A stretch of DNA of 64,000 nt from Candidatus Saccharimonadia bacterium (GTDB lineage: Bacteria; Patescibacteriota; Saccharimonadia; UBA4664). Both the position numbers and the translations under genes were made by a program. Every line of letters starts with the position of its first letter. Position 1 is the stretch's first letter. Below the pieces are notes generated by a model. That model worked only from the letters and a program-made list of their open reading frames with translations, was not told the DNA's origin and made no database searches. The stretch spans positions 366-64,365 of the forward strand of contig DASXHH010000009.1 of the NCBI GenBank assembly GCA_036488585.1, read 5' to 3'. Positions 1 to 20,640 of the stretch are shown piece after piece.

Positions 1-202
1 AACTAGCCCAGTCGCCGCGAGGGCCAGGGCAGTAAGCAGTTTTCTTGACGAGCTCCCTATACATATAAAACGCCGGGTGTTCAGACCTGTTCCTCACAAA
101 CTACTTACGCTTTTCATTATGAACTAATTGTGAACCATGCTCAAGTTAAAAAATGGCCATTTTTGACGTTCAGATAAGCAAGATAGTTAACTCCGGTAAA
201 GA

Positions 203-223
203 ATTTACTTATTAAGTAAATTA
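203..223. promoter_or_regulatory. Perfect 10-1-10 palindrome AATTTACTTA-t-TAAGTAAATT in the AT-rich upstream region of ORF 269-994; candidate operator for a dimeric regulator
   Basis: Read directly: the arms are exact reverse complements. It lies ~45 nt upstream of the GGAGAGGGGGTGAG Shine-Dalgarno and ATG at 269. Confidence 0.4.
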
Positions 224-268
224 TGGTTAAATAATTTCGAAATTCCACCGATATCCCCAGGAGAGGGG

Positions 269-994
269 GTGAGTGGCATGTCCATTGAGAACTCAGCGCT
301 TCCGCCGGTCTCTCAGGAGAGGGACCCGGAGGAAATCAGCCACTTCGGAAGATGGGCCATTAAGATCAGCCTGGATACTGCCCTGGGCATGTGGGCGGCT
401 CAGAAGCTGGCGTACCCGCTCCAAATAAAGATGGCTTCGCAGCCGCTGATACTGGTGATGCTGAACCCGATCGCTCCGGCGCTGGCCGACCTGCACGACC
501 ACTACAACTTCTGGCTCTATCTAACCATTGGCGGCTTGCGGTCGTGCATATTTATGCCGACTTCGTACTTTATGGGCCGCTACGGGAAGGAGTACGTGAA
601 GGCTCTGGCTGCTAAGCGCGAGCGCCGCACAGGCCGCCAGCTGATGTGGCCTGGTAAGGCCAGGCGTGGGATCGACCATGTGGTCAGCCCGGTCCGCGAT
701 TGGCTAACTAGCTTTGTAGCGGCCACACCGGTGCTGGCATACCCGTGGGTCTGGCTCAAGGGCCTAGGCCGATGGCTCAAGCCAAGGGTTTTGGACAACT
801 TCGCCAAATGGGGCTGGCTAATGGTCTTTATCCGGCCAAACCAATGGACGCTGATGGCTGCCGGCGCCAAGCGTATGAACCCCTGGGTGACTGGAGCGGC
901 AGCCGTTTCCGGCGAGCTAGCTTGGCTTGTGCTGGTGGCCTACATGGGCCAGCATATACCCCATATTGTGTTGAACATCTTCTCAATCTTTTAG
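269..994 (+). CDS. hypothetical protein (241 aa), Trp/Pro-rich, no recognisable domain
   Basis: Long ORF preceded by a GGAGAGGGGG Shine-Dalgarno and followed by an intrinsic terminator. Confidence 0.55.
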   Translation: MSGMSIENSALPPVSQERDPEEISHFGRWAIKISLDTALGMWAAQKLAYPLQIKMASQPLILVMLNPIAPALADLHDHYNFWLYLTIGGLRSCIFMPTSYFMGRYGKEYVKALAAKRERRTGRQLMWPGKARRGIDHVVSPVRDWLTSFVAATPVLAYPWVWLKGLGRWLKPRVLDNFAKWGWLMVFIRPNQWTLMAAGAKRMNPWVTGAAAVSGELAWLVLVAYMGQHIPHIVLNIFSIF

Positions 995-1031
995 ACCCCT
1001 TGTCGCCGTGCAAGGGGTCTTCACTTTTTAG
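995..1031 (+). terminator. rho-independent terminator (GACCCCTTG-loop-CAAGGGGTC followed by a T-run)
   Basis: Inverted repeat immediately after the TAG at 992-994, followed by TTCACTTTTTA. Confidence 0.7.
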
Positions 1032-1143
1032 TTTACCGTGCAGCGGATTTCGGCGATGAGAAGATGATGGCGCCACAGCACGGAGTTGAATCCAGACTTC
1101 CGGATGGGAGTTTTTCAAGTTCGATGTAAACGTAGCAATTGGC

Positions 1144-1178
1144 GTTCAGGCCGGCAGCTACACGCTGCCGGCCTGAAC
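1144..1178. terminator. 15-bp perfect stem-loop (GTTCAGGCCGGCAGC-tacac-GCTGCCGGCCTGAAC) between convergent genes
   Basis: Perfect inverted repeat downstream of the minus-strand gene 1190-1819. There is no T-run, so it is a hairpin-only terminator typical of high-GC genomes. Confidence 0.5.
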
Positions 1179-1189
1179 TATGGTTGTCC

Positions 1190-1819
1190 TCAGGCGGACC
1201 GTGGCATGAGCGGCGCAGCTGTGCGCCAGGCACGATCTGACAGCGGCTGAACACCGGTCTTGCGGAAGCCCTTGAGCTGCCGGTTGATTGCCAGGGCGAA
1301 ATACCCGGTCGCAAGGAGGGTACACAGACAGGTGAAGATAACGTAGAGGACGAAGCCGATGCTCCCGCCGGAGGCGAGACGGAACAGCTCCTGGTCGTTG
1401 AAGTACCTCTGCTGCTCGGTGTGGTTGAACAGGACCAGCGGGATCCACTTGCCGTGGCGCTGGGCGTGACACATCGTGACGACCTGGCCCGACCAAAGAT
1501 CGACGTTGAAGCCGGTCAGTGAGAAGCTACGCTCGCCCTGCTGGCCAACGAGCCGGAATGAATCGGTGCGCGTCACGTGCGTACCCCGGTTCACGATCAC
1601 CGCGTCGGAAGCCGACAGGTACGTAGCCGTATCGGTGACGGTGGTGGTCTGCGTGCTGCGCGCCCCATTCACAACTCCGGTGAAGGTTTGGATTGGGTAG
1701 CCAAGAACTTCGGTGCCGTCAGTGCTGACGACCATGGGCCTGTGGGCCTTCCGGATTCGTAGGAAGATGGGGATGCTGAAAACACAGCAGACCATCACAT
1801 ACGCGATGAACGCGGTCAA
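1190..1819 (-). CDS. hypothetical membrane protein (209 aa) with N- and C-terminal hydrophobic helices
   Basis: ORF with hydrophobic N-terminus (FIAYVMVCCVFSIPIFL) and C-proximal TM (FVLYVIFTCLCTLLATGYFALAI). Confidence 0.55.
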   Translation of the reverse strand: MTAFIAYVMVCCVFSIPIFLRIRKAHRPMVVSTDGTEVLGYPIQTFTGVVNGARSTQTTTVTDTATYLSASDAVIVNRGTHVTRTDSFRLVGQQGERSFSLTGFNVDLWSGQVVTMCHAQRHGKWIPLVLFNHTEQQRYFNDQELFRLASGGSIGFVLYVIFTCLCTLLATGYFALAINRQLKGFRKTGVQPLSDRAWRTAAPLMPRSA

Positions 1820-2128
1820 GGTTGTCCTCCTGCCTGCGTGGGCGGCGAGTTGCCGTCCAGGTGCGACGCCAAGACGTCCGGAAAATTTTAATATGGATTA
1901 GTCAATTAGTAAAGGCTTGGCTAAGGCTAAAAATTGTAGTGGACAGGGCTTGACTCCTGGGCACCACGCCTCGATTTGCGAGGTGAGTGATGCCCAGGAA
2001 GATGCGAGGACGCACAGTTGGATCAGCCGGCGCCGGAGATGCCGACGTTGTATACCACAAACTCCAGTCGAACTCTTGAAGTGGCTGGATCTGCTTAATC
2101 AGTATTGTGTCTCAATCGTTGAAGATAG

Positions 2129-2464
2129 CTAATAGGACGGCTTCGGAGCTCCAGTGGTAATATCGCACACCGATGAGTGGTTGCCCAAGCAAGCATTTAG
2201 CTTATTGATTTCGTATTGGTTGTATAGCCAAGCCTGCGAGGCTCCAGCGTTCGTAATGTCCTGATTATGAATAGTGGTGAAAAGAACGTAGTTAGTGAAT
2301 ATGAGACATAAAGCTAGGAGGCCAATGATGACGTCCCGAAGGTTGAGTTTATATTTTCGTTTTAACATAAATGCATTATACACTTTTAAGCATAAGAACA
2401 TTGGTGCGCCACACTTCCCAATTCTGGAACCATTTGTTGATAGCTTGCTGCGAGTCGACGTCAA
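2129..2464 (-). CDS. small hydrophobic hypothetical protein in an AT-rich (foreign-looking) segment
   Basis: ORF in a low-GC patch with one TM segment (IIGLLALCLIFTNYVLFTTI). It overlaps the tRNA-flank repeat copy at 2388-2409. The coding call is weak. Confidence 0.25.
   Translation of the reverse strand: MTSTRSKLSTNGSRIGKCGAPMFLCLKVYNAFMLKRKYKLNLRDVIIGLLALCLIFTNYVLFTTIHNQDITNAGASQAWLYNQYEINKLNACLGNHSSVCDITTGAPKPSY
2388..2409. repeat. 22-nt direct repeat of the tRNA-Leu 3'-flank/3'-end (aagcataagaacattggtgcgc), identical to 5085-5106
   Basis: Exact match by eye to the sequence spanning the tRNA-Leu 3' end. Confidence 0.7.
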
Positions 2465-2694
2465 GATAACGAAACTCGGCTTAGTTTACGAAGTCGATCA
2501 AGTTGTTGCCCGCCCGCTGGACGGAGATCCGGTCAAAAATGAACCACCTGAATGCTCAAACTCTTTGCTTAAGCGCTCGGGTGGTGCCGTCCTGGACACC
2601 ACGGGCGCTGTGTTGCACCGTGATGTCCAGGACTGGTACGCCGTTTCGACCCCCCGCAGGGATCGGCCCGAACGGCGACGGGCCGAGTTGTGGA

Positions 2695-3051
2695 TCAGTC
2701 GTGCTGATCCGGTCCGGGGCCGGGGGCCGGCGTGATGTACTCCGGCTCGGCCGGGAGCAGGACGCGCCCGGCTTCCTCGTTCAGGCGGCTCGCCACGAGT
2801 TCGGCCACGACGTTGACGTCGTTGTAGACGTCGTCGCCGGGGATCTCGAGCGATCCGAGGTTGAAGGCGAGCATGCCGTTGCGGCCGACATGGAAGTCGG
2901 CGCTCAGGAGTTCACCCGACGCCCGGAGGCGAGCAAGGACGTCCTCGAGGACGTCCCAGTCCCGCTCATCGGATGTGACCACGCCGGCCAGGTAGGTCGA
3001 ATCGTGGTCCCACTCGACGGTGAACGGGTTGGGGTTGGCGCTAACGGTCAT
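2695..3051 (-). CDS. hypothetical acidic protein (118 aa)
   Basis: ORF with good codon periodicity in GC-rich DNA, lying between two tRNA-fragment repeats. No recognisable domain. Confidence 0.45.
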   Translation of the reverse strand: MTVSANPNPFTVEWDHDSTYLAGVVTSDERDWDVLEDVLARLRASGELLSADFHVGRNGMLAFNLGSLEIPGDDVYNDVNVVAELVASRLNEEAGRVLLPAEPEYITPAPGPGPDQHD

Positions 3052-3117
3052 GACCTCTCCTTGGTATCGACAACCGTGCGTTGCTTATTATACCTTGTTT
3101 CGTATCTGGCGTCAAGT

Positions 3118-3140
3118 TGCGCGAGAGAGGAGTCGAACCT
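3118..3140. repeat. 23-nt direct repeat of the tRNA-Leu 3' half (tgcgcgagagaggagtcgaacct), identical to 5102-5124; att-like remnant
   Basis: Exact match to the acceptor-stem and T-arm 3' strand of the tRNA-Leu gene at 5099-5184. Confidence 0.8.
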
Positions 3141-3222
3141 TTTTCCAGATATAAAATTTCGAAAACACAAAAGGCGCCCAAACTGGGACTCTTCTTATTT
3201 TTAGATCTAAATTGGTGCGCGA

Positions 3223-3235
3223 GGGGTATTTAGAT
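3223..3235. repeat. 13-nt partial copy (attggtgcgcgag) of the tRNA-Leu 3' end and flank (matches 5097-5109)
   Basis: Short exact match. On its own it could be chance, but it is the third such copy within 1 kb. Confidence 0.4.
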
Positions 3236-3402
3236 GGAACTCTTTATGCCATGACATCTTGAGTTTGGGCAAGAAATTGACAGAACTGGGGTTGGGTATG
3301 ACAGGCGAAAAGTTGTTCTAACGATCTCGGATCCCTGTTGTACACTAAGCGTAAGCCTTGTGAGGGCTTGGAGAATACAAAAAATTAACAGGGGGACAAA
3401 AA

Positions 3403-4359
3403 ATGCCTCGCGAACTTGATATATTGCTACCCACCAAACTTAAGCCAGGTGATCGCGTCCGCTTCGTATCGCCGGCTAGCCCAGTGCCGAAGGGCGGGCT
3501 AGACAAGGCCGCGGAGGTACTCGAAGGTCTAGGCTTAGCGGTTGAGTACGGAGAGCATGTCTATGATGTGGATGAGACGATTGATTATCTGGCCGGTAAA
3601 GATGAATACCGGCTGGCAGATATTAATGATGCTCTGCGCGATCCTGGTATTAAGGCCATTATTGCTACTCGCGGCGGCAAAGGCGCCTACCGAATTGCTG
3701 ATGGCCTGGATTTTACTGCGGCACTCAAGCACCCAAAGTTAGTGGTTGGCTTTAGCGAAATAACCATTTTGCACATGGTCTTACTTAAGAACTGCGGGCT
3801 AGCCGGCATTCATGGCGCAGCGTGGGACGCTGAGAGGTTCGGCCAGGCGAGTGCTGCGTCATTTGTGAAGGCAGTCATGACCACTGAGCCCGTCACGGTT
3901 CATTCAACAGACAATGAGCATACGCATTTGCTTACGACCAAAGGCAAGGTAACAGGACGACTAATTGGCGGCAATCAGGATTCGATCGCTACAGGCGCCG
4001 GCTGGGCGCTGCCAAGTTTTGACGGCGCAATTTTGTTGCTCGAGGCGTTTAACTTGCGTCTGGGCCATATTGATCGACAACTGACCATGCTTCTAAAGAC
4101 GGGCATTTTTAAGAATATTGCTGGAGTGGCAATTGGTCAGTATACCAACTGCGGTGCCGCGAGTGATCCTACCGCCACTCCTGATGTGCGCTGTACCGAG
4201 ATTGAGATTTTGCGCGATCGCCTCGGTAGCTTAGGCGTGCCGATTTTGGGTGGATTGCCGTTAGGGCATGGAAAGTACCCGATTGCTGTTCCGATTGGTA
4301 CTATGGCGACGCTCGACGCAGACAACGGAGCTCTTACCGCCTCAGCGGGAGTTAAATAG
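3403..4359 (+). CDS. LD-carboxypeptidase (peptidase S66, LdcA/MccF-like)
   Basis: S66 family signatures in the protein: N-terminal VRFVSPAS, the DPGIKAIIATRGGKGAYRI block, and VVGFSEITILH (catalytic Ser context). Confidence 0.75.
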   Translation: MPRELDILLPTKLKPGDRVRFVSPASPVPKGGLDKAAEVLEGLGLAVEYGEHVYDVDETIDYLAGKDEYRLADINDALRDPGIKAIIATRGGKGAYRIADGLDFTAALKHPKLVVGFSEITILHMVLLKNCGLAGIHGAAWDAERFGQASAASFVKAVMTTEPVTVHSTDNEHTHLLTTKGKVTGRLIGGNQDSIATGAGWALPSFDGAILLLEAFNLRLGHIDRQLTMLLKTGIFKNIAGVAIGQYTNCGAASDPTATPDVRCTEIEILRDRLGSLGVPILGGLPLGHGKYPIAVPIGTMATLDADNGALTASAGVK

Positions 4360-4360
4360 C

Positions 4361-5035
4361 GTGACTCATCAAAAAGAAATACCAGCGCATCCAAGCGATC
4401 TCCAACCCCGAATTGTCCAAAAAGTATATCAACGGCGCGGTTCATTGTACGCATTTCCGACTCTTGATCCAACCAAGACTGCCCTGGTGGTGGTTGACCT
4501 AGATATGGGAACGGCTCGTGATGCTGCAAATCTGCAGCAGGTGGCCGACAACGTAAACGAGCTGGCGACTGCCTTGCGTGATCACGGTGGAACGGTTGCT
4601 TGGGTGATAACCCCAATCCAGAAACCAACTAAAAACTTCCAGGCGGTATTTGGAACGGCCGCGAGTAAGTTTGAGAATATGGGACGGCCGGGCGGGGCGG
4701 CGCATATGCTATGGCCAGAACTCAACCCACCCACAGACACCGATATACGAACTACCAAGTTGGGTCACAGCGCTTTCTTCCCCGGTAAATGTGATCTGAA
4801 TGAGAGGCTGAAAGCCAAGGGTATAGAGTCAATTTTGATCGTGGGGGCGGTCACCAACGTTTGCTGCGAAGCTTCGGCCCGCGATGCGGCGGAACTAGAT
4901 TACCAAGTCACCCTCATTTCTGACGCGATGGCAGGGCTGCCAGGGCTGATTCAGGGAACGCTCACGACATTTTTTCGTTGGTATGGTGACGTGCGAACCT
5001 CGCAGAACGTCATTCAACTCTTAAGCGAGAGTTGA
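4361..5035 (+). CDS. isochorismatase-family cysteine hydrolase
   Basis: ALVVVDLDMG motif and ILIVGAVTNVCCEASARDA (catalytic Cys region). A GTG start abuts the upstream stop; an ATG at 4268 would create a 92-nt overlap, so the start is ambiguous. Confidence 0.7.
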   Translation: MTHQKEIPAHPSDLQPRIVQKVYQRRGSLYAFPTLDPTKTALVVVDLDMGTARDAANLQQVADNVNELATALRDHGGTVAWVITPIQKPTKNFQAVFGTAASKFENMGRPGGAAHMLWPELNPPTDTDIRTTKLGHSAFFPGKCDLNERLKAKGIESILIVGAVTNVCCEASARDAAELDYQVTLISDAMAGLPGLIQGTLTTFFRWYGDVRTSQNVIQLLSES

Positions 5036-5098
5036 ATGAGAGTGATGGATGAATAAAAGCGAAAAAGACCTCACGAGGTCTTTAAAGCATAAGAACAT

Positions 5099-5184
5099 TG
5101 GTGCGCGAGAGAGGAGTCGAACCTCCACGTCCTTGCGGACACTAGTACCTGAAACTAGCGTGTCTACCATTCCACCACTCGCGC
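5099..5184 (-). tRNA. tRNA-Leu (anticodon CAG), class II with long variable arm, encoded CCA
   Basis: Reverse complement folds as a cloverleaf. Acceptor GCGCGAG/CTCGCGC; D-stem GTG/CAC; anticodon stem CTAGT/ACTAG with loop TTCAGGT (U33, CAG, G37); variable arm GTCC-gcaa-GGAC; T-loop TTCGACT; discriminator A plus CCA. Confidence 0.9.
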
Positions 5185-5236
5185 GGGTGGGCGTTAACTG
5201 GGTTACATTAGCATAATTTGGGGGCCTGGGGAAGAG

Positions 5237-6964
5237 TTAGCGAATCGGGATCAGACGGCGGCGGACGGTCCAGCGCTCCACGCCGTAGAAGCGGTCGGCC
5301 GGGGCGACTAGGCGGTGGGCCATTATGCCCGAAACATCGGAGCTGGCGGCATACACGTAAGCGGATTCGTAGAGAACGGCTGCGGGCGCGTCGGCGTCCC
5401 AGGCCTTGAGAAACTCCTCATATTTGCCCTGGCGCACAAGCGGGTCGGACTTCACGCGGCCGGATTCCAAAGCCGAGTCGGCGTCTAGGCTGGAGTAGCC
5501 GGAGAGATTAACACCGGGGTCTTTCGCCTGACTCGAGTGCCAGAATGAGTAGACATCGGGGTCGGAGCCGAGGTTCACGCCGTAGAGGAGCATTTGGAAG
5601 TTGCGCGGGCGCATGTAGGTTTGCTGAAGTTCGTTCTGATCGACGGCGGTAATACTGAGATTTATGCCGAGGGCCGACCACTGGTGCTGAATGTCTTTAG
5701 CGGCGAGCTCAAGCGGACTGCCCGCCAGGGTGACCAGCCTGAGGTGGAGCTGGCCGGGTTTGTAGCCGGCGGCAACCAGGGCTTTTTTGGCATCGGCAGA
5801 GCTGAGAGGGCCGGGGTAGTACTGGTTGGTATAGCCGGTTTGGCCCGGCAGGATGGGTTGAGTAACGGCCACGCCTTGGCCAGCCGAGGCCTGCTGCATG
5901 ACTTCGCCCCGGTCGATGGAGCGCGACAGGATGAGGCGCAAGGTTTTGTCCTTGAGCGTGGAGTCGCCGGTGGCGAAGAACAAAGTGGTCTCCTCGGGCA
6001 ATGTGAAGGTGTACTCGGTGAGTCCAACCGCCGACCGGGCCTGAGAGGCAACTTCGGGCTCGATGCGGCCCGGTGAAGTCACCTGGCGGGCGGCGTAGGC
6101 GGTGAGGGTTTGGGCCGGCGTGTCGTAGAATTTGAACATGAACTCGTCAAGTTTTGGCTTGCCAAAGTAATAATTGGGGTTGGCAGTGAGTTCAATTTCT
6201 TTGGCGGAGGGGGCAAAGGTTTTGAGCTTGAATGGGCCGGTACCCACAGGGTTCTGGTTGAAATCGGCCTCGCGCAACTGCGATGGCTCCACGTTTTCGA
6301 GCAAGTGCCGGGGAACGATGCCGACGGTGGTCGAATCGAGGAACGAATCGAGGGGCTGCGGCAGCTTCATGACCACGGTGTAATTATCGGGGGTGTCACA
6401 GGTGACGCCCTGCCAGGATGAAGCCAGCGGCGAACGGGAGTCGGGGTTTTGGATGGCGGTGAGGGTGAAGGCGACATCCGCAGAGGTGAACGGCACACCA
6501 TCGTGCCACTTGACGCCATGGCGCAGGTGGAAGGTGTAGGTTTTGCCGTCTGGCGAGACATCCCAGCTAGTGGCTAGATCCGGCACGTGCTGGCGGCGCG
6601 AGTTGTAACGGGTAAGGCCGGAGAAGACGAGACGATTAATATCGTCGGCGGTAGCTGATTCGGGAAGCAGCGGGTTGAGGGTTTGCACGGTGCCCACGGC
6701 CGCCTCGGTGTAGGTGCCGCCGGGAAAGCCGACCGCCGTGGTATAGAGCCGGTCGAGCGCACCCATTTGCTGCAGCAAGCCAACGAAGGCGACCGCCGCC
6801 AGCGCCCACCACAGCAGCAAGAAGCGCCGTACCACCCTCACCTGGTGCCATTTGCCCCAGATGTGGCGGTCTATGTAGTTGCGGGACCATTGGCGCCAGA
6901 TGCGGGTGTTGCGGCGCGCTCGACGCACCGCCCTGCGCCATCGGAACCGAAAATAGTTAAACAT
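5237..6964 (-). CDS. ABC transporter substrate-binding protein, family 5 (peptide/nickel/oligopeptide-binding type), with Arg-rich N-terminal extension and signal-anchor helix
   Basis: SBP_bac_5-type sequence along its length (WHDG..., KWHDGVPFTSADV). Its start lies 4 nt after the secG stop. Confidence 0.75.
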   Translation of the reverse strand: MFNYFRFRWRRAVRRARRNTRIWRQWSRNYIDRHIWGKWHQVRVVRRFLLLWWALAAVAFVGLLQQMGALDRLYTTAVGFPGGTYTEAAVGTVQTLNPLLPESATADDINRLVFSGLTRYNSRRQHVPDLATSWDVSPDGKTYTFHLRHGVKWHDGVPFTSADVAFTLTAIQNPDSRSPLASSWQGVTCDTPDNYTVVMKLPQPLDSFLDSTTVGIVPRHLLENVEPSQLREADFNQNPVGTGPFKLKTFAPSAKEIELTANPNYYFGKPKLDEFMFKFYDTPAQTLTAYAARQVTSPGRIEPEVASQARSAVGLTEYTFTLPEETTLFFATGDSTLKDKTLRLILSRSIDRGEVMQQASAGQGVAVTQPILPGQTGYTNQYYPGPLSSADAKKALVAAGYKPGQLHLRLVTLAGSPLELAAKDIQHQWSALGINLSITAVDQNELQQTYMRPRNFQMLLYGVNLGSDPDVYSFWHSSQAKDPGVNLSGYSSLDADSALESGRVKSDPLVRQGKYEEFLKAWDADAPAAVLYESAYVYAASSDVSGIMAHRLVAPADRFYGVERWTVRRRLIPIR

Positions 6965-7691: not shown

Positions 7692-8951
7692 TCATGATTT
7701 GGCTGATTTGCTTAATAGCTCTTCGAGCTGATCGGGGTCTGAAGGGATGTCGCGGGAGATAACTTCGCACCCACCGGTGGTGATGAGCAGATCGTCTTCG
7801 AGCCGTACCCCTATCCCCTCTGTTTTTAGGTAGAGGCCGGGCTCGCAGGTGATGACCATGCCGGGCTCGAGTGGGGCTCGGAAATCAGAGTTGTCATGGG
7901 CATCGAGGCCCATTTGATGAGAGATGTGACCGGGATAGTAGTTAAAAAGCGGACCTTTGAGGCCGAGTTTTTTGATTTCTTCGGTGAGGACCTCGCGCAT
8001 ATGGTTGTCGACGCTCACGATGGATTCGCCGGGTTTACAACGGGCGATACCAGCGAGCTGGGCCCGGCGCAGAGCCTCGTAAGTATCGCGCTGGCGCTTG
8101 GTGAATCGACCCGATACAGGGGCGACGCGGCTAATGTCTGAGGCATACCAGCCCATTTCGGCGCCGGTATCGAATAAGACGAGGTCGTGATCGCCGAGCG
8201 GAGCGTCATTTTTCATGTAATGGATGATGGTGGCATTACGGCCGGCGGCTACAATTGGCGTGAAGGCGTGGCCGGTGGCTCCGTGGCGTAGGTATTCGGC
8301 GGTGAGCTCGGCCTCAAGCGCGTATTCGGGCAGCCCCGGCGACATGGCCAACCACGCCCGCTCGAGGCCAGCCTTAGTGGTGGCGACGGCGCGGCGGATT
8401 TGCTCGATTTCGGCCGGGTCTTTAATTTGGCGGTGGTGGTTAAGCTGTGGTAGGGCGGAGCGGAGTTGGTGGAGAGGTGCTCGGCGGCGCAGTTCTCTGG
8501 CTCGGCGAGTAGCGGGCGAGGATTGGTGCGAATCGAGCGATTCGTCGGCATTGAGATAAACAGTGTGGTAACGCTCGAGTAATCGATTGAGCAGACGCGG
8601 CAGGTCCGAGAGCGGCATAACGGTTTTAATGCCAGATAGTTTTTCGGCCTGTCTTGGCGTGAGGCGCTCCCCTTCCCAGGTGCCCACAAAGTCGTTGGTA
8701 CCGCTCACGAACAACAACTGGCGGGCCTCAGGGTTAGAGTGACCGGGTACCAGCACCAGCACCGCCTCAGGTTCAGCGATGCCGGTGAGGTAGTAGAAGT
8801 TGGAGTCGGGGCGGAACGGATACTCGGCATCGGCGCTGCGCATGATTACATCGGACGTATCGATAATGGCGATAGCTTCGGGGCCGATAGCTTCCTCGAG
8901 TTTGGATCGGGCCGCGGCATGGAATTTCGGCGGCAGGGGTTCGTAGCGCAT
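7692..8951 (-). CDS. pepP: Xaa-Pro aminopeptidase (M24B, PepP-like)
   Basis: M24 pita-bread motifs: HGATGHAFTPIVAAG, DLVLFDTGAEMGWYASDISR, GHISHQMGLDAHD, LEDDLLIT. Confidence 0.8.
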   Translation of the reverse strand: MRYEPLPPKFHAAARSKLEEAIGPEAIAIIDTSDVIMRSADAEYPFRPDSNFYYLTGIAEPEAVLVLVPGHSNPEARQLLFVSGTNDFVGTWEGERLTPRQAEKLSGIKTVMPLSDLPRLLNRLLERYHTVYLNADESLDSHQSSPATRRARELRRRAPLHQLRSALPQLNHHRQIKDPAEIEQIRRAVATTKAGLERAWLAMSPGLPEYALEAELTAEYLRHGATGHAFTPIVAAGRNATIIHYMKNDAPLGDHDLVLFDTGAEMGWYASDISRVAPVSGRFTKRQRDTYEALRRAQLAGIARCKPGESIVSVDNHMREVLTEEIKKLGLKGPLFNYYPGHISHQMGLDAHDNSDFRAPLEPGMVITCEPGLYLKTEGIGVRLEDDLLITTGGCEVISRDIPSDPDQLEELLSKSAKS

Positions 8952-11083: not shown

Positions 11084-12466
11084 ATGCTTTCCCGACTAAT
11101 CGAACGCACATATAAGCTATTCATTAAACCAAAAACGGCCGATGCCGAACAGCGGCGACAAGAGTTTATTCTAAACATTATTCTGACCGGCTCGTTTGTG
11201 CTGTCGCTGGTGGCACTGTTTGTGGTGATTTTGAATCTGGCGGCTGAGAGGGTGTCGTACACCGGCGAATCTCCGGGAATGGCAGTAGTGAGCGTGGCGC
11301 TATTCGGCGGGCTGCTGGCGATTTCCCGCGGCGGTCGGTTTAAGGTTTCGGGCTACACGATTGTGGCACTGTATTTAATGATGGCCTTTTATACCCTGTT
11401 CCGCTGGGGAATTTCGCTGGCGGAAGGCGTGCTACTGATGGCGCTGGTGCTGGTACTGGCCTGGATTTTGCTGGGGACAATCGGCGGCGTGGCGGCCACG
11501 GCTTTGGCGATGGGCGGGCTGATCGTGTTGGGTTACCTGCAGCAGGAACATTTAGTACATTTTGATTCGAGCTGGATGAAGACGCCCGGCAATATGAGCG
11601 ACGGAGTGACATTTTCGCTGACGTTGTGGGTGATTACTATTGTGTCTTGGCTAAGCAACCATGAAACCGAGCGCTCGCGGCGACGGGCGCAACGCAGTGA
11701 AGAGGAGCTGAGGCGGCAGCGCGACTTGCTCGAGGAGAAGGTGCGCGAGCGGACCCGGGAGTTGGAGATAGCCCAGCATGAGCAGCTTATGCAGATGTCG
11801 AAATTCGCGGAGTTCGGTCGGCTGACCTCGGGCATCGTACACGAACTGGTGTCGCCGTTAATGGCGGTGAGCGCCAACCTGCAGCAGATGAACAACCGGA
11901 CCGCCTCCGATAAGCTGCGCCGGGCCTTGGAGGGAACCAAGCGCATGGAGCGCTACATTCTGGCAGCCCGCAAACAGCTGCAGAACCAAGCCGAGGAAGC
12001 GGAATTTTCGGTCAGCCACGAAATTGAATCGGTGGTGGATTTTCTGGCGCCGTTGGCCAAAAAGCAACAGGTGAAAATTGAGTTTATAAAACTGGGCGAG
12101 CCGGAGCTGCGGGGTAGCGCCATTAAATTGCACCAGATAATGACCAACTTGGTATCGAACGCGTTGGACGCCTACGGAACGGCTGAAGTGGCGAGCCAAA
12201 AGCGGGTGGTGGTGGAGCTGGTACGGGCTGATAGCAATGTAATGATACGGGTGCAGGATTGGGGCACCGGAATAGCGGCGGAAAACTTAGACAAGATCTT
12301 TGAGCCGTTTTATACCACCAAGAGCTCCGACCAGGGGATGGGGTTGGGCTTGTCTTTGGTGAAGGAATACGTGGAGCAAGGGTTTGGCGGCGCAATCTCG
12401 GTGACCAGTGACGATGTAAACGGCACAGTGTTTGCGCTCAGACTGCCAATAAAACGAGCGGGCTAG
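11084..12466 (+). CDS. sensor histidine kinase (multi-TM sensor, HisKA + HATPase_c)
   Basis: N-terminal TM helices, H-box GIVHELVSPL, N-box LHQIMTNLVSNALDA, G-boxes DWGTGI and GMGLGLSLV. Confidence 0.9.
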   Translation: MLSRLIERTYKLFIKPKTADAEQRRQEFILNIILTGSFVLSLVALFVVILNLAAERVSYTGESPGMAVVSVALFGGLLAISRGGRFKVSGYTIVALYLMMAFYTLFRWGISLAEGVLLMALVLVLAWILLGTIGGVAATALAMGGLIVLGYLQQEHLVHFDSSWMKTPGNMSDGVTFSLTLWVITIVSWLSNHETERSRRRAQRSEEELRRQRDLLEEKVRERTRELEIAQHEQLMQMSKFAEFGRLTSGIVHELVSPLMAVSANLQQMNNRTASDKLRRALEGTKRMERYILAARKQLQNQAEEAEFSVSHEIESVVDFLAPLAKKQQVKIEFIKLGEPELRGSAIKLHQIMTNLVSNALDAYGTAEVASQKRVVVELVRADSNVMIRVQDWGTGIAAENLDKIFEPFYTTKSSDQGMGLGLSLVKEYVEQGFGGAISVTSDDVNGTVFALRLPIKRAG

Positions 12467-17775: not shown

Positions 17776-20640
17776 CTAGACGCGGGAGGGGGTTTTGGAG
17801 GTAGCAGGGGCGGACTTGGTGCCAGCCTCGAAGATGCGCTTGAGGTAGTGGCCGGTGTGGCTTTCGGCCACCCGCGCCACCTGCTCGGGCGTGCCTTGAG
17901 CGATAATCTGGCCGCCGCCGGAGCCGCCCTCTGGGCCCATGTCGATCAGCCAATCGGACGATTTGATGACGTCGAGGTTGTGCTCGATGATGAGCACCGA
18001 GTTGCCGGTGTCGACCAAGGCGTTTAGCACATGCAGTAGGCGGTTGACGTCCTCGAAGTGGAGGCCGGTGGTGGGCTCGTCGAGGATGTAGAGGGTGCGA
18101 CCGGTACTGCGGCGGGCCAGCTCGGTGGCCAGCTTGATACGCTGAGCCTCGCCACCGGAGAAGGTGGTGGCGGATTGGCCGAGGTGGATGTAGCCGAGGC
18201 CAACCTCGTTGAGCGTGGCAAATTTGCGGCGGATGGCGGGGATGTTCTCGAAGAACTTCACGGCCTCTTCCACGGTCATATCGAGCACGTCCGAGATGCT
18301 CTTGCCCTTGTATAGGATTTCCAGGGCTTCTCGGTTGTAACGCTTGCCCTTGCACTCTTCGCAGGTGACATAAACGTCGGGCAGGAAATGCATTTCGATC
18401 TTGATGATGCCGTCGCCACGGCAGAGCTCGCAGCGACCGCCTTTAACGTTGAAGCTAAAGCGGCCGGCCTTGTAGCCGCGGATTTTGGCCTCGGGGGTTT
18501 GGGCAAACAGCTCGCGGATGTCGGTGAAGACGCCGGTGTAGGTGGCGGGGTTAGAGCGCGGGGTGCGGCCGATGGGCGACTGGTCGACGGAGATGACCTT
18601 GTCGAGGTTTTTGAGGCCCTGGATTTCATCGTGACGCCCGGGTAGGTCACCGGCGCGGTGATATACCTGAGCTAGCTTTTTGGCCAGAATGTCGTTTACG
18701 AGGCTAGACTTGCCGGAGCCGGACACGCCGGTGACGGATACAAGCATGCCGAGCGGAATGCTGACGTCGACACCCTGGAGATTGTGCTCGCGGGCGTTCT
18801 TGACAATGAGTGATTTGCGGTTGCCGGTGCGTCGCTTGGCGGGAACGGGGATGGCTTTGGTGCCGCGCAGGTACTGGCCGGTGAGGCTATCTTCGACGGC
18901 GGCGACCTCGTCGGGGGTACCGGCGGCCACAACTTTGCCACCGTGCTCGCCGGCGGCAGGGCCGATATCGATGACATAGTCGGCCATGCGAATGGTGTCC
19001 TCGTCGTGCTCTACCACAATGACGGTGTTACCGAGGTCACGGAGGCGGCAGAGGGTGGCGATGAGGCGGTCGTTGTCGCGTTGGTGGAGGCCAATGCTGG
19101 GCTCGTCCAGGATGTAGAGCACGCCCATGAGGCTAGAGCCGATCTGGGTGGCCAGCCGGATGCGCTGAGCCTCGCCACCGGCCAGGGTGTTGGCGGAACG
19201 GTCGAGGGTGAGGTACTCGAGGCCGACGTCCTTGAGGAAGTCGAGACGAGCGCAAATTTCTTTGAGGATCTGGCGAGCAATTTGGGCCTCACGCGGACCG
19301 AGGTCGAGGGATTCGAACAGCTTGGTGGCCTCGCCAATGGAGAGCTGAGTCAGGTCAACGATGGACTTGCCGCCGACCGTCACGGCCAGAATTTCGGGCT
19401 TGAGGCGTTTGCCATGGCAGACCGGGCATTCGCGCTCGGCCATGTATTTCTCGATTTCTTTGCGGACAAAATCGGAGTCGGTTTCGTGGTAACGACGCTC
19501 CATGTTGGGTATCACACCCTCATAGGTGGTGCGGTAGGTGCGGCCGCCGGGACCACGCATGGAGATTTCGGTGTCACCAGCGCCGTAGAGCACCACACGC
19601 AGGTCGGCAGGTTTCATTTCGGAGACCGGGGCGTCGAGGGAGAAGCCGAAGGATTTGGCCACCCCTTCGAGCAACTTGACATACCAGTTCATGCGGCTGG
19701 TGGTCTTGGCCCACGGACGGATGGCGCCTTCGGACAGCGTAAGGCGGCGGTTGGGGATGACCAGCTCAGGGTCAACTTCGAGGCGGGATCCCAGGCCGGT
19801 GCAGTGCGGGCAGGCGCCGTGCGGCGAGTTGAAGGAGAAGTTGCGCGGGGCGATGTCGGGCAGCGATACCTCCCGGTGGACCGGACAGGCGTAATGCTCG
19901 GAATAGACCTGCTCCAACCCGGTGTCGGCTTGGAGCACCTTCACGATGCCGTCGCCGAGGTTTAAGGCCTGCTCGAGCGATTCAGTGAGGCGCTGGCGAA
20001 TTTCGAGGTCAACGGCCACGCGGTCGGCCACGGCCTCCACGGTATGCTTCTTTTGTTTGTCGAGTGCCGGAAATTCATCGATGCTGGTGATGGTTCCATC
20101 CACGCGCACGCGGGTGAAGCCGGCCTTTTTGAGTTCGGCCACCACGCCGCGGTGCTCACCTTTTTTGTCGTCGATAACGGGCGCCAGCAGCATAATACGA
20201 GTGCCTGCTGGCAATTCGAGGATTTGGTCGACGATTTGGGCGGGGGTTTGGCGAGTCACTTCGCGGCCGCAAATTGGGCAGTGCGGCACGCCCACCCGCG
20301 CGTAGAGCAGACGGAGGTAGTCGTACACCTCGGTGACGGTGCCGACGGTGGAGCGGGGATTGCGAGAGCTGGATTTTTGGTCGATAGAGATGGCGGGGCT
20401 AAGGCCGTCGATTTGGTCGACGTCGGGTTTCTCCATGAGGCCGAGGAATTGGCGGGCGTAGGCCGAGAGCGACTCCACGTAACGGCGTTGACCTTCCGCG
20501 TAGATGGTGTCGAATGCGAGCGATGATTTGCCGGAGCCGGACAGACCGGTGATTACTACAAGTTGGTCGCGCGGAATCTCGACATCAATGTTCTTGAGAT
20601 TATGTTCTCGCGCACCGCGCACTACGATCTTGTCTGTCAT
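17776..20640 (-). CDS. uvrA: excinuclease ABC subunit A
   Basis: Two ABC ATPase modules ([14 protein letters not shown]; [14 protein letters not shown]), zinc-finger CxxC motifs, and two signature motifs ([16 protein letters not shown]). Start at MTDKIVV with a GGGGAGG Shine-Dalgarno. Confidence 0.95.

Follow-up and report, generated by a model that had tools for sequence, protein, structure and literature searches.

A probable tRNA-seeded island of integrase-less cassettes beside tRNA-Leu(CAG) in a Saccharimonadia genome

The 3' side of the tRNA-Leu(CAG) gene was examined in a 64-kb stretch of a Candidatus Saccharimonadia bacterium genome (contig DASXHH010000009.1; the whole stretch is called the window here and has a mean GC content of 58.7%). 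We consider this side of the tRNA to be a tRNA-seeded additive island, probably formed as integrase-less cassettes were inserted site-specifically. At least two to three successive insertions would have taken place at the tRNA 3' end or at displaced copies of that end. Saccharimonadia and other bacteria of the candidate phyla radiation (CPR) have genomes of approximately 1 Mb and live on other bacteria. To our knowledge little has been established about how CPR bacteria gain and exchange accessory genes. The kind of feature is known; its ordered, integrase-less cassette layout in Saccharimonadia appears to be undescribed. Neither tRNA-anchored islands nor cassette arrays turned up in literature searches on Saccharimonadia or CPR. 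The same DNA is present in the Joint Genome Institute (JGI) metagenome contig Ga0376663_0000162 (77 kb) and in Logan unitigs of SRR11834592. All close matches to the window that were retrieved came from the same genome.

The intact tRNA-Leu(CAG) that anchors the island was located at 5099-5184 on the minus strand of the window, referred to below as the tRNA direction. ARAGORN, which was used for tRNA calls, and Rfam (RF00005, 53.1 bits) agreed on it, as had an earlier sequence-only reading of this DNA. It was the sole tRNA predicted by ARAGORN in the window, and Rfam matched no family besides tRNA. Directly 3' of it is a flank termed F1 (ATGTTCTTATGCTTTAAAG) together with the tRNA terminator hairpin (5064-5098, minus strand), with a terminator-like site running from 5083 down to 5064. 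An F1-type flank with a hairpin was also present after tRNA-Leu(CAG) in L007, after tRNA-Leu(GAG) in L086 and after a tRNA fragment in L085 (numbers with the prefix L denote loci and unitigs compared with the window). The Logan unitigs break within the tRNA, 5' of the T-arm, at approximately 5127 (L004) and 5155 (L002). The breaks hint that another locus in the sample, such as a tRNA-Leu(GAG) with the same flank, has 31 nt or more of T-arm, CCA and flank in common with this one.

Parts of the tRNA 3' end recur further along the island. Copies of 22 nt (2388-2409) and 23 nt (3118-3140) had been reported from the sequence alone. Both were found at these positions, as exact matches to 5085-5106 and 5102-5124, respectively. 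The 22-nt copy comprises 14 nt of 3' flank and 8 nt of tRNA end. Allowing one mismatch lengthens the match to 27 nt (2383-2409 against 5080-5106), made up of the same 8 nt of tRNA end and 19 nt of flank. The 23-nt copy (AGGTTCGACTCCTCTCTCGCGCA, minus strand) is identical to the tRNA at 23 of 23 nt from the T-arm to the discriminator base, without the CCA. Significance was judged from 100 shuffles, in which the 22-nt and 23-nt repeats had 0 matches. The third copy, the 13-mer ATTGGTGCGCGAG, does exist but had been placed 12 nt off, at 3223-3235; it occupies 3211-3223 and matches 5097-5109. Taken alone it is weak, with 0.17 matches expected at one mismatch allowed. However, it keeps the register and strand of the other copies and belongs to a junction module that was found in other genomes.

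The copies are nested rather than three equal scars, as the sequence-only reading had them. GCGCA stands at the end of the 23-nt fragment and at the start of the 27-nt one. Joined, they match 5124-5080 at 44 of 45 nt. The two fragments thus tile to a tRNA 3' half-site, and the 708 bp between them (2410-3117) can be read as one insert that split this half-site into its halves. The 13-nt copy marks the far boundary of a larger unit, islet 1 (3224-5096), which contains the genes for an LD-carboxypeptidase and an isochorismatase-family hydrolase and also covers the F1 flank and terminator. Islet 1 has the 13-nt repeat at both ends, the tRNA-proximal copy (CTCGCGCACCAAT on the tRNA strand) being at 5097-5109 on the minus strand and matching 3211-3223 exactly. 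The claim that the fragments derive from a tRNA-Leu 3' end held, as exact repeats bounding compositionally distinct units. Their assignment to the CAG gene alone did not, since the tRNA-Leu(GAG) of relatives has an identical 3' end.

Composition changed with the units. The 55 open reading frames (ORFs) of the window had a median GC content at third codon positions (GC3) of 0.725 (standard deviation 0.078). GC3 was 0.52 for the LD-carboxypeptidase gene, 0.53 for the isochorismatase gene and 0.87 for a 118-aa gene in the 708-bp insert, so that islet 1 and the inner insert are both atypical in composition. The low GC3 of islet 1 is consistent with the 46-50% GC of genomes holding homologues of the LD-carboxypeptidase. 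AT-rich stretches were also confirmed, at GC 0.375-0.44 (2101-2500) and 0.435-0.485 (3001-3400) against 0.587 for the window. They do not represent bulk foreign DNA, as had been supposed, and consist mainly of promoter and terminator spacers plus one small AT-rich gene.

The window was compared with 15 related Saccharimonadia loci, of which nine reach the tRNA. These are distant relatives (SBP-family protein 45-74% identical). The closest relatives of this SBP-family gene, which adjoins the tRNA, were in Candidatus Saccharimonadia and Saccharimonadales metagenome-assembled genomes, and this places the organism among the TM7/CPR bacteria. The gene order M24 peptidase (absent in some), holin, SecG and SBP was kept wherever the loci extend that far, and tRNA-Leu(CAG) directly followed SBP in nine of the 15, as in the window. 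The six genes that the window has left of the tRNA had no homologue in any of the 15 loci. Relatives therefore keep the upstream genes and none of the downstream ones, which makes the 3' side of the tRNA a variable island. Shared gene content at this tRNA, the first of the conditions that would have refuted the sequence-only reading, was thus not observed. Each relative carried different genes on this side. The shortest layout was in L010 and consisted of tRNA-Leu(CAG), an HD hydrolase, an FAD oxidase, a 114-aa gene, tRNA-Leu(GAG) and tRNA-Val. Other relatives had 4-9 kb of differing genes past the first tRNA. No tRNA-Leu(GAG), tRNA-Val, HD, FAD-oxidase or 114-aa gene was found in the window or in the 6.6 kb to its left. 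The region thus has bounding direct repeats and the intact tRNA on one side, related genomes lack it at the corresponding site, and its composition is atypical, as in tRNA islands. No element-encoded integrase was found next to an att site.

The junctions between units recur in other genomes. A 22-mer scan of metagenome contigs returned two loci, L085 and L086. L086 has tRNA-Leu(GAG) with the F1 flank and hairpin, followed by a promoter and a small gene, and L085 has a 2.7-kb array of at least three units parted by tRNA-end fragments. Further junctions were located in L005, L006, L014 and L089. Eight modules from five genomes aligned (alignment A4). The module has a constant order: a tail ending in CACCA, a spacer of approximately 70-95 nt with a terminator-like hairpin, TATCTGTTGCATG, a T-arm-like box with the consensus GGTTCAAGTCCTCTCTGG, a promoter and a gene. 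It was found directly 3' of tRNA-Leu(CAG) in L005, of tRNA-Leu(GAG) in L006 and of an apparent tmRNA 3' end in L089 (seen by eye, with no ARAGORN call), and between cassettes in the window, L014, L085 and L089. A junction with a tmRNA-type tail (CCGCACCA) was present inside the tRNA-Leu array of L014. The modules of L005 and L014 were 94% identical over 67 nt, compared with 67-72% for coding DNA.

A box GTTC(C/T)A was located at -22 or -23 from GCACCA in seven of nine internal junctions, in four genomes. In the tRNA genes checked and the tmRNA-like end of L089, GTTCNA was at -18. The recurrence of a six-base box at one offset in this many junctions is estimated to go far beyond chance, even if some of the junctions are paralogues. 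Both far boundaries in the window have this box. That of islet 1 (3211-3244, minus strand) consists of GTTCCA, 16 variable nt and the 13-nt tRNA-identical tail at 3211-3223, with GTTCCA beginning 22 nt ahead of GCACCA. That of the inner insert (2383-2430, minus strand) consists of GTTCCA at -23, variable nt, GCGCACCA and 19 nt of F1. Between the islet 1 boundary and the T-arm fragment is a 70-nt spacer (3141-3210, minus strand) with a weak hairpin, a T-run and a terminal TATCTGG. It aligned with seven other modules, from L005, L006, L014, L085 and L089. With its regular geometry, the junction looks like an att site with flanking boxes and not like random wreckage. The description of the array as decayed or degraded is doubtful because the junctions look ordered: their geometry is conserved in five genomes and each unit appears to keep a promoter.

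The inner insert is laid out as a small expression unit. A promoter (TTGACG, 17 nt, TATAAT; 3087-3115, minus strand) matches the consensus at 11 of 12 positions. It was the best site in 1800-5300 and begins 2 nt past the T-arm fragment. The 118-aa ORFan gene, the cargo of the insert, was taken from the ORF listing (2695-3051, minus strand, GC 0.68), and a ribosome-binding site, AAGGAGAGG, is located ahead of its ATG. On its 3' side is a hairpin with 16-nt arms (2589-2633), an inverted repeat with 94% complementarity, which is probably the terminator of this gene. Similar hairpins (TCCTGGRCACCAC ... GTGATGYCCAGGA) are found at 1955-1999 and 2589-2633, in neighbouring units, and comparable hairpins were seen by eye after the palindrome in L085. 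The JGI annotation has a 135-aa gene at 2328-2735 on the plus strand, running from AT-rich DNA over the tRNA fragment and the palindrome. This call is antisense to the 3' end of the 118-aa gene and is probably spurious.

The palindrome is imperfect (2538-2592, plus strand), with an outer stem of CCACCTGA and TCGGGTGG and an inner stem of GCTCAAA and TTTGAGC. Approximately 125 nt separate it from GCGCACCA. Five copies were found in three genomes, one in the window, three in L085 and one in L007 (nhmmer E values of 2e-7 to 3e-14). Each copy follows an ORFan gene, and those of L085 are 781-810 bp apart. The hairpin has 16 pairs, of which three show compensatory change, and its fold is slightly better on the plus strand of the window (-21.9 compared to -18.8 kcal/mol). 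A covariance-model search of 365 kb of loci returned no copy beyond the five, there was no Rfam match, and neither the palindrome pattern nor the module pattern was matched in viral contigs. A looser module pattern had one match in viral contigs, in a phage coding region and by chance, and the tRNA 3'-end pattern matched only two jumbo-phage tRNA arrays. Three other identities were considered for the palindrome. As the start of a small gene it was rejected: three copies have MNxLKAQ-like starts but the L007 copy and the L085 copy at 1767 have no ATG. As an integron attC it was rejected on its conserved boxes, which are CCACCTGA and TCGGGTGG (or the complement) and not RYYYAAC...GTTRRRY. As a repetitive extragenic palindromic (REP) or IS200-IS605 hairpin it was rejected with one copy in the window, five in 365 kb and no transposase seen.

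From this arrangement we infer the recombination chemistry, the order of events and the continued mobility of the units. The most probable mechanism would be site-specific recombination, in which the 3' end of the tRNA recombines with an att-like site, with a matching tail, on an incoming circular DNA. Each event would restore the tRNA, supply a new flank and terminator, and displace the older units outward. Read outward from the tRNA, the order is the intact tRNA, F1 and the terminator; then islet 1, with isochorismatase before LD-carboxypeptidase; then the junction module (GTTCCA box, 13-nt tail, 70-nt spacer and 23-nt T-arm box). This is followed by the promoter, the 118-aa ORFan, the hairpin and the palindrome, then by the second GTTCCA box, GCGCACCA and the F1 remnant, and finally by the small AT-rich gene. 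As the units themselves lack a recombinase, the enzyme would be supplied from outside. The units may be ordered cassettes moved by a recombinase that is encoded elsewhere. The sequence-only reading had proposed successive site-specific integrations at the tRNA, and this is broadly borne out.

Several observations weigh against this interpretation. No integrase, excisionase or transposase was identified near the island in Pfam calls that extend from the tRNA approximately 6.6 kb leftward and 17 kb rightward, as the sequence-only reading had said of integrases. The weaker screens of the whole window agreed: motif and tblastn recombinase screens were negative, and a Pfam screen of 40 further window ORFs showed no recombinase among 25 of the 54 families listed. 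A regex screen of all loci, itself weak, returned no recombinase, and none was found beside the modules of the other loci. The sole recombinase seen was in L096, a locus without an identified module. No empty site or excised circle was seen, and the 22-mer scan of metagenome contigs returned no attP-like or empty-site contig. The tRNA-identical tails differ in their left edge (8-19 nt) and the T-arm boxes vary in the base at which they stop, so that no single fixed crossover point can be read from them. In L006 the T-arm box is TTCAAGT, compared to TTCGACT in the resident tRNA, so that not every such box comes from the local tRNA by displacement. The LD-carboxypeptidase is common in Saccharimonadia (70-79% identical in many genomes), and islet 1 could be relocated DNA of the lineage and not a dedicated mobile element.

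The main rival explanation is that the fragments are remnants of tRNA-Leu paralogues and local tandem duplications, shuffled by homologous recombination, for example after natural transformation. We regard it as possible, if rather unlikely. The 23-nt and 27-nt fragments would then be a broken tRNA-Leu(GAG) gene with its flank. In relatives a tRNA-Leu(GAG) does occur 2.8-8.8 kb downstream; its last 28 nt are the same and its 5' end is almost identical. Such a history accounts for the GAG gene, tRNA-Val and the intervening genes being missing from the window and the 6.6 kb to its left. The distal fragment is identical to the flank of the L086 tRNA-Leu(GAG) at 26 of 26 nt (2384-2409), one base better than to the CAG flank of the window. 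Plain, cargo-free tandem duplications of the tRNA 3' end and terminator occur in L009 and L013, and modules of approximately 100 nt are long enough for homologous exchange. However, where the supposed GAG gene should have its 5' two-thirds there is a spacer that can be aligned with the junction modules of other genomes, and not a random deletion edge. Neither decay nor unequal crossing-over would be expected to leave GTTCYA at a fixed 22-23 nt from GCACCA in unrelated cassettes, and the tmRNA-type junction within the tRNA-Leu array of L014 also speaks against paralogy. The unitig breaks at approximately 5127-5155 could mean that the GAG gene is elsewhere in the genome.

It is improbable that the module and palindrome are selected cis elements (terminator, promoter and RNA structure) whose likeness to tRNA is a by-product. 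The module does have a terminator-like hairpin followed by a promoter, the 16-pair hairpin of the palindrome shows some compensatory change, and modules are better conserved than the adjacent genes. In the window and in junction j3 of L089, however, the module terminator faces a divergently transcribed gene and has nothing to terminate. The tails are base-for-base identical to the end of the resident tRNA and its flank, the genes that separate the modules are different from genome to genome and mostly ORFans, and no Rfam family was matched. An assembly artefact, in which tRNA-Leu(CAG) was joined to DNA that follows another tRNA-Leu with a shared 3' end and flank, is very improbable. In its favour, unitigs L004 and L002 end inside the tRNA and the tRNA-Leu(GAG) of L086 bears the same flank. 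Against this, the shared stretch of approximately 50-75 nt is assumed to be shorter than the largest k-mers of metagenome assemblers. Records of the same proteins exist on a 157.6-kb contig, and an NCBI metagenome-assembled genome is among the sources. The internal repeats are wholly within unitig L004 (window 5-5127) and independent of the join; with the nested repeats inside a single Logan unitig, an artefact is unlikely to matter.

The insertion reading can be set beside known systems. Williams reportedly defined sublocation classes of tRNA- and tmRNA-targeted integrative elements in 2002. The island resembles these elements and the tycheposon islands of Prochlorococcus in insertion at the 3' end, an intact proximal gene and partial tRNAs between units. 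In tycheposon islands, as here, variability is highest beside the tRNA, cargo is of mixed composition and many units have no integrase. Partial tRNAs between tandem elements and accretion next to the tRNA are a hallmark of tRNA-targeted integration (bioRxiv 10.1101/2020.12.28.424599). In keeping with this, the modules stand beside tRNA-Leu(CAG), tRNA-Leu(GAG) and the apparent tmRNA end and between cassettes. In contrast to tycheposons, no tyrosine or serine recombinase, replication or packaging module or phage-like gene was found in or near the units; no replication, packaging or phage-like gene was present in any unit examined. The units here are also only 0.7-1.9 kb, with one or two genes and in at least one case their own promoter. 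They have a regular junction module of approximately 130 nt, and none such was seen described for tycheposon remnants.

Cis-mobilizable elements (CIMEs) and accretion arrays of integrative and conjugative elements (ICEs) were reportedly described by Pavlovic and colleagues in 2004 for ICESt1 and ICESt3 of Streptococcus thermophilus. CIMEs are similarly att-bounded segments without an integrase, arranged in tandem at the 3' end of a conserved gene, with a recombinase thought to be supplied elsewhere. They differ in that no partner ICE is present at the window locus, an ICE-like context being seen only in L096 and L097.

Integron arrays share co-oriented single-gene units of approximately 0.7-0.8 kb, mostly ORFans, each with an imperfect palindrome after it, and in both the newest unit should stand beside a fixed primary site. 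They differ in several respects. No IntI was found here, nor IntI with an adjacent attI and a Pc promoter near the array; the palindrome has no RYYYAAC...GTTRRRY, promoters are carried by the cassettes themselves, the 3' end of a tRNA or tmRNA takes the place of attI as primary site, and only five palindromes are known. We suggest, as a tentative and unlikely extension, that Saccharimonadia have an integron-like cassette system of small, promoter-bearing and mostly ORFan units with an att-like site of approximately 130 nt and an outside recombinase. The site would consist of the GTTCYA box, a tRNA-type tail ending in GCACCA, the terminator and the T-arm-like box. Some units would be tagged by the palindrome, and insertion would be serial, at tRNA-Leu and tmRNA 3' ends. 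Such a system would give tiny-genome epibionts a dedicated route for sampling accessory genes. If the module is a working insertion system, it would account for the variable gene sets beside tRNA-Leu and tmRNA and provide a sequence signature for locating such cargo in metagenomes. If the array is only the wreck of old integrations, it is ordinary and one more tRNA-seeded island.

The cargo of the inner insert has few recognizable relatives. The 118-aa protein had no Pfam or PADLOC match, and a word-indexed search of 5.8 billion proteins returned only the protein itself. A full HMMER search gave low-complexity matches only (RTX-repeat, fasciclin and similar), and the AlphaFold model was poor (pLDDT, the predicted local distance difference test, of 59). 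The 348-aa palindrome-linked protein of L007 matched only itself in the protein collection. An origin of the high-GC cassettes in actinobacterial hosts was considered, but these self-only matches gave no homologue to compare for it. No Pfam or PADLOC match was found for it, for the L085 and L086 proteins or for a 79-aa AT-rich ORF of the window with an N-terminal hydrophobic segment (2132-2368, minus strand, GC 0.43, GC3 0.53). This ORF starts directly past the F1 remnant, with TGTATAAT and then its ATG. Predicted as a gene from its sequence, it is possibly the next cassette.

The two genes of islet 1 are both antisense to the tRNA. The LD-carboxypeptidase gene (3403-4359, plus strand) encodes the Pfam S66 N- and C-terminal domains (E values of 6e-32 and 4e-25) and the isochorismatase-family hydrolase gene (4361-5035, plus strand) encodes the Pfam Isochorismatase domain (3e-26). 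In L089 the LD-carboxypeptidase gene adjoins a junction module, in the array that starts at the apparent tmRNA end. In L092 it is approximately 3.6 kb from tRNA-Tyr, among toxin-antitoxin genes. In L097 (986-8343) the pair of genes directly follows a coupling-protein gene of a type IV secretion system (T4SS), and in L096 (1-20945) the LD-carboxypeptidase gene is near Replic_Relax and a large serine recombinase. T4SS genes (VirB4-like ATPase and coupling protein) precede the LD-carboxypeptidase gene in L096 and L097, and Replic_Relax is downstream in both. On these gene calls, the surroundings are a putative ICE-like neighbourhood. No T4SS, relaxase or serine-recombinase gene was found in the window.

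At the other end of islet 1, GCGAGAGTTGAATGAGAG (5022-5042) is located at the 3' end of the isochorismatase gene, approximately 25 nt beyond the tRNA terminator. It is like a T-arm box with a 6-nt deletion and may be a degenerate box of islet 1's own module. In L014 the tRNA pair is at 11747-11832 and 19137-19222. The tRNA-Leu(GAG), of 86 nt, has its 5' flank (tctattcaagttcaccc) and most of its body in common with tRNA-Leu(CAG) and looks like a duplicate of that gene with a changed anticodon. Tandem copies without cargo, comprising the final 19 nt of tRNA-Leu and the terminator, are present in L009 (11808-12069) and L013 (15973-16190), with periods of 132 and 165 nt, respectively. Before the second copy in each is GGGAGGT(C/G)GCGCAGC(G/C)AC, which resembles a T-stem with a foreign loop. 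The L009 contig stops within its repeat.

An LD-carboxypeptidase with 76% identity, P0041, is filed under the actinobacterium Jiangella anatolica, on a 47.6-kb contig. The entry could represent Saccharimonadia epibiont DNA in the assembly or gene transfer between host and epibiont. The leader of the LD-carboxypeptidase gene in the window contains a hairpin, (A)GCCTTGTGAGGGCT(T), at 3345-3370. This hairpin was kept in four genomes (the window, L089 at approximately 7960-7985, L092 at approximately 7920-7945 and L097 at approximately 5950-5975) and may be a regulatory element.

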